A stretch of 64,000 nucleotides of DNA from an uncultured Candidatus Saccharibacteria bacterium (GTDB lineage: Bacteria > Patescibacteriota > CALEFQ01 > G965231055): positions 732,500 through 796,499 of the forward strand of contig OZ246411.1 of assembly GCA_965231055.1 (NCBI GenBank), read 5' to 3'. Below the pieces are notes generated by a model. It did no database searches, had not been told where the DNA came from, and saw nothing but the letters and a program-made list of their open reading frames with translations. Both the position numbers and the translations under genes were made by a program. Of this stretch, positions 31-43,208 are shown one piece after another. How positions within the stretch are numbered: position 1 is the first letter of the stretch; every line of letters starts with the position of its first letter.

Positions 31-531
31 TTACAAATCCCCAATAGCAACTATATTGCTGGGCAAATCTTTATATGAAACTCTTACAATACCAACGGGC
101 ACAATTTTTTCATTGCTCTTAACTTGCATTTTATCCACATCGGTAAAAGTTTTCTTATCACAAATATAAACTTTTCCTGTTTTCTTTTTTGCCGCATCTA
201 TTAGATTTTGGGAAGCTTTGAAAAATGAACGCCCTTCTTCATCAATACCGAATTCGCTTTGAGATTCACTCGTAACATCTTCTGGATTAATCAATGATCT
301 AAAAATCGCAACTTCAGCAAATGGCGTTGCCCACACAGCAGATTCACCATCTTTAACTGATTTTTTATCATCGCTCACGAACTGATCTCCTTCTCTGGGC
401 TCTAATACATCAATATCAAATAAAGAACCATGAAAAACATATTTACCCTCTTTTTCAAGGGTAAGAAGTTTTTCTCTGCCGCTCAACTGTTTTTCAACTT
501 CATGGTTATTTTCAGCATTCATAAAACCCAA
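31..531 (-). CDS. hypothetical protein (166 aa), no recognisable motifs
   Basis: ORF track; K/E/D-rich soluble protein with no hydrophobic segment. Confidence 0.45.
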   Translation of the reverse strand: MGFMNAENNHEVEKQLSGREKLLTLEKEGKYVFHGSLFDIDVLEPREGDQFVSDDKKSVKDGESAVWATPFAEVAIFRSLINPEDVTSESQSEFGIDEEGRSFFKASQNLIDAAKKKTGKVYICDKKTFTDVDKMQVKSNEKIVPVGIVRVSYKDLPSNIVAIGDL

Positions 532-18117: not shown

Positions 18118-18152
18118 ATGAATACTGAGCCCTGAAAACTGAATTCTAAAGA
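18118..18152 (-). promoter_or_regulatory. CTGAAWA heptad-repeat array (5 units) upstream of ruvX
   Basis: atgaata ctgagcc ctgaaaa ctgaatt ctaaaga. Confidence 0.45.
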
Positions 18153-18892
18153 GTTAAAATCTCATGTCCATAATGAGTGACTGCGACAGTATGCTCAAAG
18201 TGAGCAGAGAGCCCACCATCGGCTGTCGAAAAAGTCCATCCATTGTCCTCTGAAACAATATTGTAATCCGAAATAACCACCATAGGCTCAAGTGCCAAAA
18301 CCATTCCCGCTTCAAGTCGTTTTCCAGTTCCAGCTTTTCCATAATTCAAAACCTGTGGCTCCTCGTGAACTGCTTTACCAACTCCGTGACCAACCAGATC
18401 TCTAACCACATCAAAACCCTGACTTTTCACAAAAGATTCTATGGCATGGCCTATGTCTCCAAGCGTGGCTCTGGGATTCATGACCTCAATTCCTTTTTCA
18501 AGCGCTTTTTTAGTTACATCAATTAGCTCCAAAGCTTGGTTACTCACAGATCCTACGGGCACAGTTACGGCGTGATCCGTAAACATGCCTTTGTATATCA
18601 TACCCAAATCAAGACTAACTATATCTCCCTCCAATAGTTCTCTTTTTGATGGAATACCATGAACAATTTCAGCATTTACCGAAGTGCAAAGACCAGAAGG
18701 AAAACTTCCTTTGTAGTTTTTGAAAGAGGGCTCTCCTCCCGCTTCTTTTATCAAGGCCTCGGCTCGCTCATTCAAAAATTCAGTAGTTACTCCGGGCTTT
18801 ACCAAATCAGAAACCTCCCGCAGAATTTCTGCGAGATATTTGCCTCCCTCTTTGAGTTTGGCTATTTCTGATTGTGATTTAAGATAAATCAT
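18146..18892 (-). CDS. map: methionine aminopeptidase type I
   Basis: 248 aa with conserved D/D/H/E/E metal-ligand spacing. Confidence 0.9.
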   Translation of the reverse strand: MIYLKSQSEIAKLKEGGKYLAEILREVSDLVKPGVTTEFLNERAEALIKEAGGEPSFKNYKGSFPSGLCTSVNAEIVHGIPSKRELLEGDIVSLDLGMIYKGMFTDHAVTVPVGSVSNQALELIDVTKKALEKGIEVMNPRATLGDIGHAIESFVKSQGFDVVRDLVGHGVGKAVHEEPQVLNYGKAGTGKRLEAGMVLALEPMVVISDYNIVSEDNGWTFSTADGGLSAHFEHTVAVTHYGHEILTL

Positions 18893-18971: not shown

Positions 18972-19050
18972 GTCATGCTGAACTTGTTTCAGCATCCATT
19001 TACGGCGTCGAAGACGACGATGTCTGGATCCCCGCATTCGCGGGGATGAC
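18972..19050. other. GC-rich cluster of three consecutive hairpins in the adk-map intergenic region
   Basis: atgctgaa-cttgt-ttcagcat; cgtcg-aaga-cgacg; atccccgc-attc-gcggggat. Confidence 0.5.
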
Positions 19051-19101
19051 AACGAAGCGATAAAATTATCGATCTCGAGCGATAGCTATTCTATAATGGT
19101 G

Positions 19102-19764
19102 CTAAATGTCTTGTCTAGCATTAAACCCTTTCTCAATATCCTCAAACACCTTTTCTCTATCCTGCTCACCATTAATTTCTATGAGGTTACCTTTATTTCT
19201 ATAATATTCAACCAAGGGTTTTGTATTGCGCTCATATTCATCCAATCTCCTTGTAATAGCTTCTTTTGTCTCATCAGCCCTTACTTTTAGCACTGTACCG
19301 CATTTTTTACAAACTTCTATGCCTCTATCACGATCGCCATACTTTTCACCGCATTTAGGACATTCTTTGCGAATAGAAAGTCTTTTGAAAGTTTCTTCTC
19401 TGCTGATATTTATGAAAATAAATACTGACTCTTCTCTATCCCATTCCTTCATTTTTTGTTCAAAATGATCTTTTTGAGCAAGGTTTCTGGGATAACCGTC
19501 AAAGACCACCGCGTCAGAACTTATTACAAGATCTTTGGCTTTTTCGTCAAAAAATTTATTTATATCTGATTCAGGAAGCAGGTTACCTTTATCAATTATT
19601 GATGATATGTGTTTACCAAGCGCGGAACCACTTGCAATTTCATCTCTCAGAAGTTTTCCAGATTCATAGAAACCAAAACCATGTTTTTCAACCAGAAGCT
19701 TGGCCTGAGTACCTTTTCCAGAAGCCTGCGGACCTGTGATAATAATATTTAGCTTTTTATTCAT
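19102..19764 (-). CDS. adk: adenylate kinase (Zn-binding lid)
   Basis: GPQASGKGTQ P-loop; lid CPKCG...CKKCG. Confidence 0.9.
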   Translation of the reverse strand: MNKKLNIIITGPQASGKGTQAKLLVEKHGFGFYESGKLLRDEIASGSALGKHISSIIDKGNLLPESDINKFFDEKAKDLVISSDAVVFDGYPRNLAQKDHFEQKMKEWDREESVFIFINISREETFKRLSIRKECPKCGEKYGDRDRGIEVCKKCGTVLKVRADETKEAITRRLDEYERNTKPLVEYYRNKGNLIEINGEQDREKVFEDIEKGFNARQDI

Positions 19765-19865
19765 AATTTTTCAATTAATAATCTATTGTACCACCTCACA
19801 ATATCTAATTCAAACGCACTTTTTTGGGGAAAACCGTTTGCATATAGCTAAAACAATAATATTAG

Positions 19866-19902
19866 CTATTGGACATCTTGGGCATATTTTGATAGGTTTT
19901 TA
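19866..19902 (+). promoter_or_regulatory. conserved upstream block (promoter/leader) of membrane-protein paralog 1
   Basis: tattggacatcttgggcatattttgataggttttta is about 85% identical to 20457..20494 upstream of paralog 2. Confidence 0.4.
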
Positions 19903-19951
19903 ATATCAGTATTTGAGTATATTAACCCGTTCTTTAAAAAGGAGGTTCGTA

Positions 19952-20365
19952 ATGCTAAAAACCATATGGGCTCACACAATGTTCATACTAACTCTTGCAC
20001 AGATCGGAGTAACTGTCTTTTTTATTAGCGAAAATTCTGCCGTGAACACCTGGATGAATTCCACTGCAACCATAGGAAACAACAATATACCACTCGCCCT
20101 TCTGTTCTCAATCTTGGCATGGTGTTCGCTTGCATGCTACTCTCTTCTGATTTTCCACTCAGCCCACGCCATCAAACCCCAAAAACGGCGCATAATAACG
20201 TCAGCCAGACTAAACATCGCCACATTCCTCATCGGCATTATTATTGCCCTATCAGGATGCGTATATGGTGCCGTATCTGCAATACCACGATTCACATTGA
20301 TAGCTCTTGGACCAATAATGATTGTAAGCCTTACGATACCACTCATAAATTCCAAAGAAGAATAA
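19952..20365 (+). CDS. small multi-pass membrane protein (137 aa), paralog 1
   Basis: AGGAGG RBS 7 nt upstream of ATG; 4 predicted TM helices; the KRRIITSARLNIATFLIGIIIA segment matches paralog 2. Confidence 0.6.
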   Translation: MLKTIWAHTMFILTLAQIGVTVFFISENSAVNTWMNSTATIGNNNIPLALLFSILAWCSLACYSLLIFHSAHAIKPQKRRIITSARLNIATFLIGIIIALSGCVYGAVSAIPRFTLIALGPIMIVSLTIPLINSKEE

Positions 20366-20456
20366 GAAACAAAACAGATCCTTCACACCCTACTGCCTTC
20401 AGTGGGGTTATTTTTTTATAAAATAGAAAATTGCTAGCCCAAAAAAGCTGTTTTTA

Positions 20457-20494
20457 ATTATTGGACATTTTGAGGTAATTTTGATAGGTTTTAA
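20457..20494 (+). promoter_or_regulatory. conserved upstream block (promoter/leader) of membrane-protein paralog 2
   Basis: tattggacattttgaggtaattttgataggtttta; duplicate of the block upstream of paralog 1. Confidence 0.4.
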
Positions 20495-20547
20495 GCACAT
20501 AGTGTTTCTAGATTTATTCAACTCGTTCATTTAAAAGGAGACTAGGG

Positions 20548-20916
20548 ATGAAAAATTTTCTTATCGGTTTAATTGGTGCATTTGCGATTATTCAAGTTGG
20601 CGCGGCGCTTGACATGATTGGAGAATATGCTAAAGCAATCGAAAAAGACGGAACACTACTTATCATCGCAATTCCTCTCCTGACATGGTATGCGCTCACT
20701 ATTTACTCTTTTTGGTTATTTCCACTTGTACTTCTAAGAAATCCCAACAAAACGAGAATTGCAACATCTTTCGGCTTGAGATTTTCAGCGACTTTTATTG
20801 GACTCTGCATTGCCACAGCTGATGCATTGTTCACCGCAAAACTAAGCGTCATTCAACTTATCTTGCTAATAGTGATTAGCTTGGCAACGATCCTTGTGAA
20901 CCCAGTCAAAACCTAA
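20548..20916 (+). CDS. small multi-pass membrane protein (122 aa), paralog 2
   Basis: AAGGAG RBS; hydrophobic profile and the KTRIATSFGLRFSATFIGLCIA segment parallel paralog 1. Confidence 0.6.
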   Translation: MKNFLIGLIGAFAIIQVGAALDMIGEYAKAIEKDGTLLIIAIPLLTWYALTIYSFWLFPLVLLRNPNKTRIATSFGLRFSATFIGLCIATADALFTAKLSVIQLILLIVISLATILVNPVKT

Positions 20917-20945
20917 AAAACCCAACGTTCTCTCTTGAACAAAAA

Positions 20946-20975
20946 AACAGCCCGTAAAAAAGGCTGTTTAAAATT
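20946..20975 (-). terminator. rho-independent terminator downstream of secY (convergent with the + strand membrane-protein genes)
   Basis: aacagcc / ggctgtt 7-bp stem with 9-nt loop; T-run on the minus strand. Confidence 0.6.
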
Positions 20976-20988
20976 GCTCAAAATTAAT

Positions 20989-22266
20989 CTAGATACCCTC
21001 GTAATCTCGCATAACTAACTGAGAATCTATTTGTTTTACTGTCTCTATAACCACAGAAACTACGATCAAAAGCGCAGTTCCACCTATTGTAAGGGTTTGA
21101 ATACCAGTACTTGCCTGAACTATGTTTGGAAGCACAGCTATGATACCGAGAAAGATCGCACCAGTGAGTGTAATTCTGTTTACAATATACTTGAGGTAAT
21201 CAGCAGTGGGCTTACCTGGTCTAATTCCAGGAATAAATCCACCCTGTCTTTGCACATTTTCAGAAATTTGCTTTGGATCAAACGTAATTGAGGTATAAAA
21301 ATACGTGAATGCGACAACCAGCACAAAATACAAAATCGCATAAACCAATTTGTCATTGAAAAATGCCGCTATCGCTGCAGCCGCATTTGCGACTGTGGCA
21401 TTGGAAACACCTGAAAGAAACTGAGCGATGATTCCAGGAAAAAGCATAATAGCTATAGCAAATATAATAGGCATAACTCCCGCCTGATTTACTCTAAGCG
21501 GAAGATGACTCGTAATTCCACCGTACATCCTATTTCCTCTGATTCTTTTTGCATAAGAAACTGGGATATTTCTTTGTCCCTCTGTGATCAAAACTACTCC
21601 GGCGATAACAACTATTGCGATAGCGCCAAAAACTAACATGCTGATTGTTTGAGTAGCATCAGCGACTGATAATGTTTGTTTAATAGAAGCGGGAATTCTA
21701 GAAACAATTCCAGCAAAAATGATTAAAGAAACTCCATTGCCTATTCCTTTTTCAGAAATCAATTCACCAATCCACATCAAAAGCACGGTTCCAGCAGTAG
21801 CCGCAACCACAATTGATACCATATTTGTAACAGAAAGGTCAGTGATCAATTTTACAGAACCTCTGTTCATCAAGGCAATCATGGAATAAACCTGAAGTGC
21901 CGCAAAGGGAACTGTAAAGATTCTAGTAAGTTGATTGAGCTTTTTGCGTCCTTCTTCGCCTTCTTCCTTTTGCATTCTTTCAAGTGCAGGAATAATCATA
22001 GCAAGCAACTGAAAAATAATAGAAGACGTAATATATGGTCCAACTCCAAGCATAGCTATAGAGAGTGAGGAGAGACCTCCTCCAGAAAAAATATCAAGAA
22101 GACCAAACATGTCATTGCTCTCCATAAAATTCGCCAGTGCCGCAGTATCAACTCCGGGAACTGGGATAGCTGAAATAACTTTGAAAATTAAAAGCATAAC
22201 AGCAACAAATATTATTTTGTTGCGTATCTCTTTTACACTAAAAACTTGTTTTAGTTTTTCAAACAC
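20989..22266 (-). CDS. secY: preprotein translocase subunit SecY
   Basis: 425 aa, 10 TM segments with typical SecY motifs. Confidence 0.95.
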   Translation of the reverse strand: MFEKLKQVFSVKEIRNKIIFVAVMLLIFKVISAIPVPGVDTAALANFMESNDMFGLLDIFSGGGLSSLSIAMLGVGPYITSSIIFQLLAMIIPALERMQKEEGEEGRKKLNQLTRIFTVPFAALQVYSMIALMNRGSVKLITDLSVTNMVSIVVAATAGTVLLMWIGELISEKGIGNGVSLIIFAGIVSRIPASIKQTLSVADATQTISMLVFGAIAIVVIAGVVLITEGQRNIPVSYAKRIRGNRMYGGITSHLPLRVNQAGVMPIIFAIAIMLFPGIIAQFLSGVSNATVANAAAAIAAFFNDKLVYAILYFVLVVAFTYFYTSITFDPKQISENVQRQGGFIPGIRPGKPTADYLKYIVNRITLTGAIFLGIIAVLPNIVQASTGIQTLTIGGTALLIVVSVVIETVKQIDSQLVMRDYEGI

Positions 22267-35696: not shown

Positions 35697-36122
35697 TTAT
35701 TTCTTTTCCTTAGGTTTTTTGGCTCCATATTTGCTTCTTTGCTGCATTCTTCCATCAACTCCAGCAGTATCTAGAATTCCTCTTACTACATGATATCGAA
35801 CACCTGGTAGATCAGGCACTCTTCCTCCTCGAACCAATACCACGGAGTGTTCCTGCAAATTATGTCCTTCACCTGGAATATATGCGGTTACTTCCATACC
35901 ATTGGTAAGTCTTACCTTTGCTATTTTTCTCAAAGCTGAGTTTGGTTTTTTTGGAGTAGTAGTTTTTACTACAAGACAAACACCGCGCTTGAAAGGATTT
36001 CCTTTGCGTAGTTTTACCGGTTTATTCTTTAACGTGTTGAACTGGGTTTGCAAAGCTGGGGTCCTACTTTTTTTCTTGGGACTCTTTCGGCCTTTGCGGA
36101 CCAGCTGATTCATTGTTGGCAT
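35697..36122 (-). CDS. rpsL: 30S ribosomal protein S12 (about 17-aa insertion after residue 22 relative to E. coli)
   Basis: [11 protein letters not shown] and [12 protein letters not shown] motifs. Confidence 0.95.
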
Positions 36123-36296
36123 AAAAATACTGCTTTTGTAAGCTTAAATAAGTACTTGCATAATTTAGCAGACAACAAAACAAGAGTCAAGTGTATTTCC
36201 GCTAAAATTGACAACAAAATATAAAAATGGTAGTTTCCGCACAATGAGTTTGATCTTTTCCCAGCATTTTGCACAAAACACGAAAGGAGACGCAAA

Positions 36297-36776
36297 ATGA
36301 CAAAGAAGGAATACCAAAAGGTTATTGAGGGTATTGTTTCTCCGATTTGGAAAGAAGAGTTCGGAGATCTCAATGAGGCATTTTCTCGTTCAATATCGGA
36401 TGACACCGAAACACCATGTATCGACTGGGGCAAGGATGTCTACATCAATTTTCATCCTGACTTCAGGGGATTCAACATTGATATATTCCAAAACTTCAAA
36501 ATACCCACCGATTGTACGTTCGACAATGGCATAAAAATCATCAACCTTGCACTTACCACAATGGCTATTAAGATTGATTGGATTCGGGTTTGGAAAGAAG
36601 AATTTTGGGACACTGGCTTCAGCATTAACATGCAACCTTTTCAAATTGAAGACTCCAAAAGCTTCACCGCCAATGTCGAGATTCTTGCAATCCAAAACCC
36701 AAGTGCAAAAAAACTATCTTCAGCACTGAAAATCTTATTCGCCATACTGGGATCGTCAAATTGGCCAAAATCATAA
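36297..36776 (+). CDS. hypothetical protein (159 aa), W/F-rich
   Basis: GGAG RBS 7-8 nt upstream; TTGACA-like promoter near 36207; terminator follows. Confidence 0.5.
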   Translation: MTKKEYQKVIEGIVSPIWKEEFGDLNEAFSRSISDDTETPCIDWGKDVYINFHPDFRGFNIDIFQNFKIPTDCTFDNGIKIINLALTTMAIKIDWIRVWKEEFWDTGFSINMQPFQIEDSKSFTANVEILAIQNPSAKKLSSALKILFAILGSSNWPKS

Positions 36777-36834: not shown

Positions 36835-37479
36835 TTAAACTAATTCTTTGCTTTCCAAAAATGTTTTTACTTTCTGAAAAATCAATTTATGTCCTACGGC
36901 ATTGAAATGTACCCCATCCTTATCTAGAACCTTCTCAATTCCAGTTTTTTCGAGCTCTGGCCATATCTCTACAAATTCAACACCCACATTTTCACAAACC
37001 GATTTGGCAATACATCCATATTCCTTCTTGTCTTTGTTACTATATGAGAAATTGGCATCCCAGGAAACTGGATGTGTTTTCAATTCATCCACCATCCCCG
37101 TACCAATAAAAATCACATTTTTAACGAGCTTTTTGGCTTTATCGAGAATCTGCTCAAGATTTAATTTAAAATCCATAGAAGACACTGCGTTGGTATTTTT
37201 ATCTTTTAGAAAAGCTGAGTCATTACTTCCAACTCTAATCAATATAGTCGTCTCATCGTATTTATCATATTTTTATCTAGCTACGGTTTCGCTTTCTATT
37301 CTTTTCAAAACTCCACTAGTGTCATCGCCATCTATCCCGAGATTATAAACTAAAACAAAATAATCCTTACCCTCCATATTTTTCTCGTCAGCAAATTTAC
37401 GAAGTCTTGCGACCCAGCCACCATCAGGATCCCAAGCACCGTAAGTATTGCTATCTCCGAAAATTAAAATTTGAGACAT
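36835..37479 (-). pseudogene. SGNH/GDSL hydrolase interrupted by an in-frame TAA
   Basis: Blocks I GDSNTYG, II GIDGDDTSG, III GSND and V DGVHFN all in one frame; single TAA at 37273..37275 between blocks II and III. Confidence 0.5.
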
Positions 37480-42276: not shown

Positions 42277-42439
42277 TTTATTGTTTTTTATTATTTTATT
42301 CTACCACAATGAAAAGCTAAATCCCAAAAATATGATTCTTCACGATCTCAGGGTACCAAGCATGTAACCAACGCGACTTTAGCTTGTCAAAACTCTTTCC
42401 TTATGATACCCTCTTTGAGTAAATATTTAAAGCAAAAAG

Positions 42440-42610
42440 ATGGCACGAGAATGTACAATGTGCGGAAAAGGAACTCAAGTGGTAAACAACAGACCACATT
42501 CTTTGACGATTACAAAACGTAAACAAAAGGCAAATCTTCAATGGACCACCCATAAAGGAAAAAGAGTTAGAGTCTGTACCGCATGCCTAAAGAAGCTTCA
42601 CACAAAATAG
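42440..42610 (+). CDS. rpmB: 50S ribosomal protein L28 (C4 zinc-ribbon form)
   Basis: 56-aa ORF MARECTMCGKGTQVVNNRPHSLTITKRK...VRVCTACLKK, below the ORF-track length cutoff. Confidence 0.6.
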   Translation: MARECTMCGKGTQVVNNRPHSLTITKRKQKANLQWTTHKGKRVRVCTACLKKLHTK

Positions 42611-42620
42611 ATATACGAAA

Positions 42621-42647
42621 AGAGCGCCATTGGTGCTCTTTTTTTAA
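42621..42647 (+). terminator. rho-independent terminator after rpmB
   Basis: agagcgcc att ggtgctct followed by ttttttt. Confidence 0.6.
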
Positions 42648-42709
42648 TCCCGCAAACGGGTTGCAAATGCTATTTCCGATTAGAACAAGTGGGTGCTCGC
42701 ACGAATAAT

Positions 42710-42841
42710 TCATGGACAAACCATCGAATTATTCAAATATTGAACTCCCTTTGCATTAAGTTTGACCGGAAAAGCAAATTTGTAACCTAACGCTTCGCGG
42801 GACAGCTTAATTGTATCATTATCATCTATGTCGTCAAGCAT
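42710..42841 (-). CDS. putative small protein (43 aa)
   Basis: ATG-initiated ORF MLDDIDDNDTIKLSREALGYKFAFPVKLNAKGVQYLNNSMVCP, located about 60 nt downstream (in gene orientation) of a CTGAAWA heptad array. Confidence 0.25.
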   Translation of the reverse strand: MLDDIDDNDTIKLSREALGYKFAFPVKLNAKGVQYLNNSMVCP

Positions 42842-42900
42842 ACGAGTGTTCAGTTTGCAGTGTTCAAAAGTCACGACTGAAATCAATACTTAGACAAAAC

Positions 42901-42928
42901 GTGAATACTGATTACTGAAAACTAAACA
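42901..42928 (-). promoter_or_regulatory. CTGAAWA heptad-repeat array (4 units) upstream of small ORF 42710..42841
   Basis: gtgaata ctgatta ctgaaaa ctaaaca. Confidence 0.4.
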
Positions 42929-43003
42929 CTTATTCATCCCATTGCAATGAGCTAAAAATATTGCTACAATTCACGGGTGAAATTAATTAATAATCTCAAA
43001 AAT

Positions 43004-43177
43004 ATGTACAAAATAGATAAAAGTAAATGTGCTAAATGTGGGACTTGCCTATCTGCTTGTGCAAGTGAATCCATAAAAACTAATAGCGATGGAAGTTTCG
43101 AAATAGACAATGCCAAGTGCATAGAATGCGGAGCCTGCAAAGCGGTTTGTCCAAACGACGCTATTATCGAAGAATAA
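43004..43177 (+). CDS. 2x[4Fe-4S] ferredoxin
   Basis: CAKCGTCLSAC and CIECGACKAVCP motifs; ATG at 43004 preferred over the upstream GTG at 42977. Confidence 0.75.
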   Translation: MYKIDKSKCAKCGTCLSACASESIKTNSDGSFEIDNAKCIECGACKAVCPNDAIIEE

Positions 43178-43208
43178 TTATTTCAAAAAAAGATAATCAA
43201 AAATCGCT

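Follow-up and report, generated by a model that had tools for sequence, protein, structure and literature searches.

In Bacillus subtilis and many other bacteria, the spc operon ends in the order secY–adk–map. Genomes of the candidate phyla radiation (CPR) are rich in orphan genes for small membrane proteins. Small proteins with four transmembrane (TM) helices, often encoded by tandem paralogues, are also known from the paired SMR and Fluc/CrcB families, and some holins possess three to four TM helices. Here we describe two paralogous genes for predicted 4-TM proteins, designated A and B, which lie between secY and adk in a stretch of 64,000 nucleotides of contig OZ246411.1 (hereafter the window). 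The source genome belongs to a member of the Patescibacteria (CPR). The two genes had been noticed in an earlier reading of the DNA letters (the original prediction), and the open reading frame (ORF) calls reproduce its coordinates and sizes for both plus-strand genes between the minus-strand secY and adk.

The pair is best explained, with a probability of roughly 0.6, as a tandem duplicate of a fast-evolving orphan gene that resides in a variable spot after secY and is organized as two self-contained units. This explanation draws on the anatomy of the locus, the paralogy of A and B, the evidence that B is coding, the restricted occurrence of the family and the plasticity of the secY–adk junction. 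The original prediction had offered a toxin/immunity pair, holin-like proteins or small transporter subunits as possible identities, and none of these guesses found a match in Pfam, NCBIfam, PHROGs, PADLOC, the sequences of the Protein Data Bank (PDB) or a fold search.

Paralogy and membrane topology

A and B align in BLASTP with 26% identity over 109 residues (E = 3e-7). Their Smith–Waterman score is 94, against 33 ± 6 in 1,000 composition-preserving shuffles, none of which reaches 94 (z = 10). The similarity therefore exceeds that expected from shared membrane-helix composition, and by these sequence comparisons A and B are true paralogues, as originally proposed. The best-conserved stretch comprises the end of TM2 and the loop that follows it (W-[YC]-x-L...S...F...P-x-K-x-R-I-x-T-S-x-x-L).

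Hydropathy analysis yields four TM segments in A and four in B (Table 1), the number assigned to them previously. Lysine and arginine residues cluster in the TM2–TM3 loop (positions 75, 78, 79, 80 and 86 of A; 64, 68, 70 and 78 of B), and the positive-inside rule therefore places this loop and both termini in the cytoplasm. We infer an N-in/C-in topology with a cytoplasmic TM2–TM3 loop for both proteins. Both C-termini are short, and neither is highly charged (...INSKEE and ...NPVKT). AlphaFold2 (AF2) models, built from two-sequence alignments, contain four helices in each case, with predicted local distance difference test (pLDDT) scores of 52 and 57. A Foldseek search of these low-confidence models against the PDB is uninformative, returning generic helical bundles and no match at E < 1. 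An internal 2+2 TM duplication within A or B was considered and found no support.

Proteins of 122–137 residues with four TM helices, encoded by tandem paralogues, resemble the products of paired SMR and Fluc genes, so that A and B could be small channel or transporter subunits that form a hetero-oligomer of 4-TM protomers. We regard this as improbable. Neither protein matches SMR, CrcB or any transporter family of Pfam or NCBIfam, even at E ≤ 10, and neither TM1 contains the membrane-embedded glutamate that defines SMR proteins. The lysine/arginine bias has the same sense in both proteins and points to a single orientation, unlike the arrangement of dual-topology pairs. In addition, no fluoride or guanidine riboswitch is present, and the genes are predicted to form separate transcription units rather than an operon.

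Distribution of the family

A word-indexed search of 5.8 billion protein clusters matched A and B to themselves only. When 1.84 billion representatives were searched exhaustively with a HMMER profile, A, B and three tandem-repeat proteins were recovered, the latter rejected as spurious because their scores arise from repeated short stretches. A profile built from three sequences and run against the six-frame ORFs of 90 related loci and the window retrieved only A, B and one orthologue of B, which is carried by a close relative (L082). The family profile gave no match in IMG/VR (viral) or JGI metagenome contigs, and an exact search of metagenome contigs with the conserved terminator described below did not yield a longer contig of this relative. 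Scans of A and B against Pfam, NCBIfam, PHROGs and PADLOC returned nothing meaningful (for the PADLOC anti-phage defence models, 0 families at E ≤ 1), and the profile retrieved only noise from PDB sequences, with herpesvirus gB at E~0.07. Nothing specific emerged from the literature searched.

The nearest SecY proteins besides that of L082 are at most 72% identical and come from assorted Patescibacteria metagenome-assembled genomes. At about 90 related loci, no homologue of A or B is present besides those of the same genome and of L082. On the basis of these searches the family appears to occur only in the window genome and in L082, its closest relative; it evolves fast. The remote-homology check that the original prediction had called for thus identifies no known family, and the pair is not a widely conserved core component among these loci.

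Coding status and selection

In a codon-aware alignment of A and B, nucleotide identity is 39%, 62% and 31% at the first, second and third positions, respectively, against approximately 29% for random sequences. A direct view of selection is provided by L082, a 2.8-kb Logan contig found by a SecY search, whose SecY is 96% identical to that of the window. Its B orthologue is situated directly after secY on the opposite strand, in the same position as in the window, and is truncated at the contig end. Between the window and L082, B has 57% amino-acid identity, a synonymous divergence (dS) of 0.88 and a ratio of non-synonymous to synonymous divergence (dN/dS) of 0.33. The corresponding values are 96%, 0.65 and 0.03 for secY, 90%, 0.65 and 0.08 for the S5 gene, and 91%, 0.77 and 0.07 for the L15 gene. 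The dN of B is thus about 15 times that of secY, and the fastest-changing part of the protein is the short TM3–TM4 loop. Every gap in the B alignment comprises whole codons, and changes affect 36.8 of 71 synonymous sites compared with 51.2 of 214 non-synonymous sites (Fisher's exact test, p = 1.5e-5). Judged by this substitution pattern, B is a genuine coding gene on which purifying selection is relaxed, and A is very probably a real gene as well.

That the two ORFs might be spurious, a non-coding spacer with chance open frames, is suggested by the lack of homologues in very large databases and by the low confidence of the AF2 models. This view is already largely refuted and scarcely credible, given the paralogy of A and B at z = 10, the in-frame gaps and dN/dS of the B orthologue, the identity of second codon positions (62%, against 31% at third positions), the correct spacing between the Shine–Dalgarno (SD) sequences and the ATG codons, and the presence of terminators.

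Promoters and translation signals

Each gene is preceded by one copy of a 39-nt direct repeat (D2). The copies are 82% identical, are the only two in the window (0 in 100 shuffles) and end 52 nt (A) and 56 nt (B) before the start codons. The original prediction had correctly placed a duplicated block about 50 nt upstream of each gene; its size and identity, given as 37 nt and about 85%, are corrected here. The layout of the repeat is TTGGAC-N15-TGA-TAGGTT. The −35 element and the extended −10 element are the same in both copies, and mismatches are confined to the spacer. Before both genes, the elements of a sigma-70 promoter with an extended −10 (TTGNNN, a spacer, TGn and TANNNT) are found at the right distance and facing the gene. 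The more general pattern TTGNNN-N14-16-TGNTANNNT occurs 20 times in the window, against 11.5 ± 3.5 in shuffles, and is found directly upstream of rpsL, rpmB, a ferredoxin gene, the plus-strand ORF at 36297 and adk, in the right orientation in each case. As many of the matches stand directly upstream of gene starts, the 39-nt block is best read as a host-type promoter, predicted to be of the sigma-70 type with an extended −10, which fits better than a leader RNA. The suggestion that the block is a shared promoter is supported in this respect. Sigma-54 and extracytoplasmic-function (ECF) readings of the block were rejected in a by-eye consensus comparison, the GG/GC spacing being unfit and a CGT −10 being absent.

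If A and B separate adk–map from secY, the former would need a promoter of their own, as the original prediction had pointed out. A promoter-like site that matches the host extended −10 pattern was found by consensus scan upstream of adk (Table 1).

A second conserved element of 21 nt adjoins or contains the SD sequence of each gene. Its pattern, AACYCGTTCWTTWAAAAGGAG, occurs twice in the window, against 0.01 times in shuffles, and is confined to these two sites. Across the window, an SD core is missing near every plausible start in 46 of the 75 ORFs, and about ten ORFs have an SD sequence of 5–6 nt. SD use is therefore so low that AGGAGG or AAGGAG sets apart the few genes that carry it, and the rarity attributed earlier to these strong ribosome-binding sites is borne out.

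The promoter blocks are 82% identical and their spacers agree at 13 of 18 positions, compared with 31% identity at the third codon positions of A and B. As neutral sequence of the same age would be randomized too, the blocks would be under selection or have been homogenized by gene conversion; selection on them could reflect a promoter together with an overlapping operator. Since the promoter and SD blocks have remained about 80% identical while synonymous sites have been randomized, the two copies are most likely co-regulated and strongly expressed.

Leaders and terminators

Two conserved non-coding islands upstream of each gene, the second of them inside the predicted 5′ untranslated region (UTR), could alternatively represent a cis-regulatory leader RNA, such as a riboswitch or attenuator, rather than a promoter; the original prediction had allowed for such a leader. 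The predicted leaders of about 45–50 nt fold no better than shuffled sequences (z = +0.41 and +1.62), and Rfam gives no match at E ≤ 10 in positions 19000–21500 and none at the gathering score anywhere in the window. These results therefore lend no support to a structured leader RNA. Moreover, the first island has the exact −35/TGn/−10 layout seen at other genes here, with mismatches only in the spacer, and the leaders, at about 46–50 nt, are to our knowledge too short for known riboswitch aptamers. We consider the leader-RNA explanation very unlikely and retain that of a promoter.

A GC-rich hairpin followed by a U-tract is found past the stop codon of each gene, at the two positions given in Table 1. 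The second hairpin, predicted after secY in the earlier reading, scores as a terminator on both strands. Its U-tract is strong on the minus strand, on the secY side, and weak on the plus strand (TTTAAAATT). The hairpin is identical in L082. With these signals, the locus can be described as two independent units of one gene each, which diverge from adk and converge on secY.

Small hydrophobic proteins with strong expression signals, and a helix number within the range of some holins, would suit a toxin/immunity pair or holin-like lysis proteins. The two products are paralogues of the same architecture and not a toxin with a distinct partner. Toxin–antitoxin and immunity systems comprise two different proteins encoded in one operon; here, each gene has its own predicted promoter, gene A has its own terminator, and this terminator and the second promoter lie between the genes. 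No endolysin, spanin or phage gene is located nearby, PHROGs (0 families) and PADLOC are empty, and the C-termini, as noted above, are not strongly charged. Such a function is accordingly given very little weight, and the pair is treated below as two self-contained units of an orphan family.

Table 1 Coordinates of genes, signals and predicted helices at the secY–adk junction of the window
Feature	Position	Strand	Description
adk	19102..19764	−	Adenylate kinase, 220 aa; ORF; Pfam ADK recorded on identical Logan contig; flanks the insertion downstream
Promoter-like site for adk–map	19785..19813	−	TTGAAT-N17-TACAAT with TG; consensus scan; divergent from gene A
Promoter block of gene A (predicted)	19862..19900	+	−35 TTGGAC 19869–19874, TGA, −10 TAGGTT 19893–19898
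SD-adjacent conserved block of gene A	19924..19944	+	AACCCGTTCTTTAAAAAGGAG; SD AGGAGG 19940–19945, 6 nt before ATG
Gene A	19952..20365	+	137-aa orphan; ATG start; between adk and secY
Intrinsic terminator of gene A (predicted)	20387..20408	+	9-bp stem, then TATTTTTTTA; fold −13.3 kcal/mol, z −2.7
Promoter block of gene B (predicted)	20454..20492	+	−35 TTGGAC 20461–20466, TGA, −10 TAGGTT 20485–20490
SD-adjacent conserved block of gene B	20520..20540	+	AACTCGTTCATTTAAAAGGAG; SD AAGGAG at 20535
Gene B	20548..20916	+	122-aa orphan, paralogue of A; ATG start; between adk and secY
Terminator hairpin common to gene B (+) and secY (−) (predicted)	20945..20969	both	Scan; z −3.9 (+), −4.3 (−)
secY	20989..22266	−	425 aa; ORF; Pfam SecY on identical Logan contig; homologues found; last gene of the ribosomal-protein cluster
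Predicted TM helices of A	residues 5–23, 50–68, 93–111, 114–132		Hydropathy; K/R-rich loop 75–86
Predicted TM helices of B	residues 3–21, 37–55, 84–102, 104–122		Hydropathy; K/R-rich loop 64–78

The secY–adk junction in the window and in relatives

On the minus strand, the gene order of the window is S5, L15, secY, adk, map (18146..18892) and a RuvX-like gene. Genes from position 1 to approximately 55.8 kb are mostly on this strand, forming a run of about 55 kb. A and B are the sole plus-strand ORFs of more than 90 codons near the junction, where they occupy a separation of 1.2 kb between secY and adk; other small plus-strand genes are located at approximately 36.3 and 42.4–43.2 kb.

The junction was surveyed in about 90 related loci, 71 of which have a readable gene downstream of secY. 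The next gene is adk within 200 nt in 32 of the 71 loci, and adk after a larger gap in 17 (nine at 201–1,000 nt and eight above 1 kb); in the remaining 22, map is the next recognized gene. The junction is interrupted in 39 of the 71 loci by varied cargo, and the gap after secY measures between less than 200 nt and 4.7 kb. In gaps of about 700 nt there is an extra P-loop kinase on the same strand, and larger gaps contain ABC transporter genes and large proteins of unknown function. The cargo is nearly always on the same strand as its neighbours; a kinase in locus L067 is the single clear exception. Relatives with 54–72% SecY identity have either contiguous secY–adk or unrelated cargo.

The closest relatives on long contigs (68–72% SecY identity) share the synteny map–RuvX–glycosyltransferase–GalT–TIM and differ just after secY. 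There, L083 has Ham1 and two small ORFs followed by adk; L084 (69% SecY identity) has a 290-aa gene and a diversity-generating retroelement and no adk; L086 has neither an insertion nor adk; L088 has a 283-aa protein of unknown function; and in L090, adk follows directly. Judging from these gene orders, the secY–adk junction is a variable spot in this clade. The comparison with related genomes confirms that A and B form an insertion relative to the usual contiguous secY–adk arrangement. The original claim that the pair splits a conserved operon stands to this extent; the split is less exceptional than had been thought, given the number of interrupted junctions.

Three further observations concern the junction in relatives. 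The retroelement of L084 (9872..11280) comprises a bAvd accessory gene and an RVT_1 reverse transcriptase and occupies the secY–map junction. A P-loop kinase-like gene of about 197 aa (GMCGAGKSEVADRF...) recurs between secY and adk on the same strand, in L003 (7365..7958), L008 (3108..3761) and L055 (7355..7954), and is an insertion distinct from the A/B pair. The adk gene is missing from the secY–map junction in L086, L088 and L084 (68–69% SecY identity), in which map comes next after secY or after the cargo; as it is absent there from several of the closest relatives, adk would be mobile or dispensable at that position in the clade.

Codon usage and origin

The G+C content at third codon positions (GC3) is 0.43 for A and 0.37 for B, compared with 0.294 ± 0.028 for 35 reference genes. 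Scores analogous to the codon adaptation index are 0.60 and 0.64, respectively, and that of the lowest-scoring reference gene is 0.666. Atypical codon usage and a rare strong SD sequence fit a recently acquired or a young accessory gene.

Acquisition would be a rival of, or an addition to, the explanation by duplication of an orphan gene. As a rival, it would make the pair horizontally acquired cargo of a mobile element or phage, with a part in membrane-level defence or exclusion (such as superinfection exclusion or receptor masking), and it would account for both the fast evolution and the narrow distribution. Besides GC3 and codon usage, it is favoured by the strong SD sequences in a genome mostly without them, the orientation opposite to the surrounding minus-strand run, the location in a hotspot that carries a diversity-generating retroelement and other cargo in relatives, and the high dN relative to secY. 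We nevertheless consider it unlikely. No convincing integrase, transposase, tRNA gene or flanking direct or inverted repeat was found near A and B, and the window contains no tRNA genes at all. PHROGs, PADLOC and IMG/VR contigs give no match, the promoters follow the pattern of the host's own genes, and a dN/dS of 0.33 speaks for selection that is, overall, purifying and not diversifying.

Other genes of the window

The plus-strand ORF at 36297..36776 encodes a soluble, orphan-looking protein of 159 aa among minus-strand genes and is divergent from rpsL (35697..36122, minus strand). It has a promoter-like site at 36208–36236 with an extended −10 match and a strong SD sequence, AAGGAG, at 36284; a matching divergent promoter-like site for rpsL is at 36190–36162 on the minus strand. 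Two adjacent minus-strand ORFs, of 68 aa (37273..37479, starting ILIFGDSNTYG) and 135 aa (36835..37242), together resemble a single SGNH/GDSL-type hydrolase gene interrupted by a frameshift or stop codon, and may represent a pseudogene or a sequencing error.

A plus-strand islet at 42380..43180 comprises rpmB (L28, 42440..42610) and a gene for a 66-aa 4Fe-4S ferredoxin (42977..43177), with promoter matches at 42384–42412 and 42942–42970, respectively. The ferredoxin start codon is 7 nt past the −10 element, which suggests a leaderless mRNA or the use of another start codon.

Discussion

In the preferred explanation, a tandem duplication of a fast-evolving orphan gene after secY, each copy would consist of a promoter (TTGGAC-N15-TGA-TAGGTT), an unstructured leader of about 45–50 nt, a strong SD sequence within the 21-nt block and an ORF for a four-helix protein. 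Gene A would end at its own terminator, and gene B would use the bidirectional one together with secY; these terminators would insulate secY, and adk–map would have acquired a promoter of their own. Each product is predicted to be a protein of the cytoplasmic membrane with both termini inside and the conserved lysine/arginine loop, P-x-K-x-R-I-x-T-S, between TM2 and TM3. The products may be abundant accessory envelope proteins that form homo- or hetero-oligomers; their role would be lineage-specific, at the envelope or an interface, and distinct from that of known toxins, holins or transporters. The conserved spacer of the promoters may be the binding site of a shared regulator.

Several points weigh against this explanation. 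An orthologue, and a truncated one, was found for B alone; for A, the argument for coding selection is its paralogy with B. The promoters, terminators and transcription starts are predicted from consensus matches only, and the likeness of the two upstream regions could also stem from gene conversion between them. The AF2 models are poor, and the four-helix bundle and topology are predicted from hydropathy and the positive-inside rule. The GC3 deviation amounts to only about 1.7–3.4 binomial standard deviations in such short genes. Finally, the functional part, namely an abundant envelope protein, an oligomer and a shared regulator, is tentative.

A bolder version holds that A and B are a newly born or ultra-fast family of abundant, genus-specific membrane proteins that shape the envelope, the host interface or phage susceptibility, under joint control by a regulator acting on the promoter spacer and the 5′ UTR block. 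We regard it as a long shot. If true, it would offer a rare case in which one could trace, in a reduced genome, how an orphan membrane gene arose, was duplicated and gained its regulation. Likewise, should A and B turn out to be abundant components of an episymbiont's envelope, they would be candidate host- or phage-interaction factors.

The finding is of modest value: it records two real and probably well-expressed orphan genes for membrane proteins within a gene string that is among the most conserved in bacteria. Within this clade of Patescibacteria, the position after secY emerges as a hotspot of variable cargo. The duplicated promoter is a natural example of the TTGNNN/TGnTANNNT pattern in an uncultivated lineage and could aid the annotation of CPR transcription units.

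Comparison with known systems

The flanking genes and their order are those of the canonical secY–adk–map end. The difference lies in what the junction can carry, the cargo in this clade including P-loop kinases, Ham1, ABC transporter genes and a diversity-generating retroelement.

Phage holins and CidA/LrgA-type proteins share with A and B their small size, several TM helices and strong translation signals. A and B differ from them in lacking a PHROGs or Pfam match, a lysis cassette, a prophage context and a charged C-terminal tail. Paired SMR proteins (EbrAB, YdgEF) have about 110–140 aa and four TM helices, and are encoded by two adjacent paralogous genes; A and B differ in having no match to Pfam Multi_Drug_Res, no TM1 glutamate, one predicted orientation and separate predicted transcription units. 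Fluc/CrcB pairs consist of 4-TM protomers of about 125 aa that are often encoded by tandem paralogues, whereas A and B have no CrcB match in Pfam or NCBIfam, no fluoride riboswitch and no sign of opposite topology.

The closest likeness in kind is to the lineage-specific ORFan small membrane proteins of CPR bacteria, which are short and hydrophobic, have no Pfam or NCBIfam domain, are restricted to narrow clades, evolve fast and are found in variable spots. A and B stand apart from typical members of this group as a tandem duplicate that includes the promoter and SD block, and in their position on the opposite strand inside the conserved secY–adk–map string, insulated by predicted terminators. 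They represent a new orphan family, yet one of a kind that is ordinary for CPR genomes.

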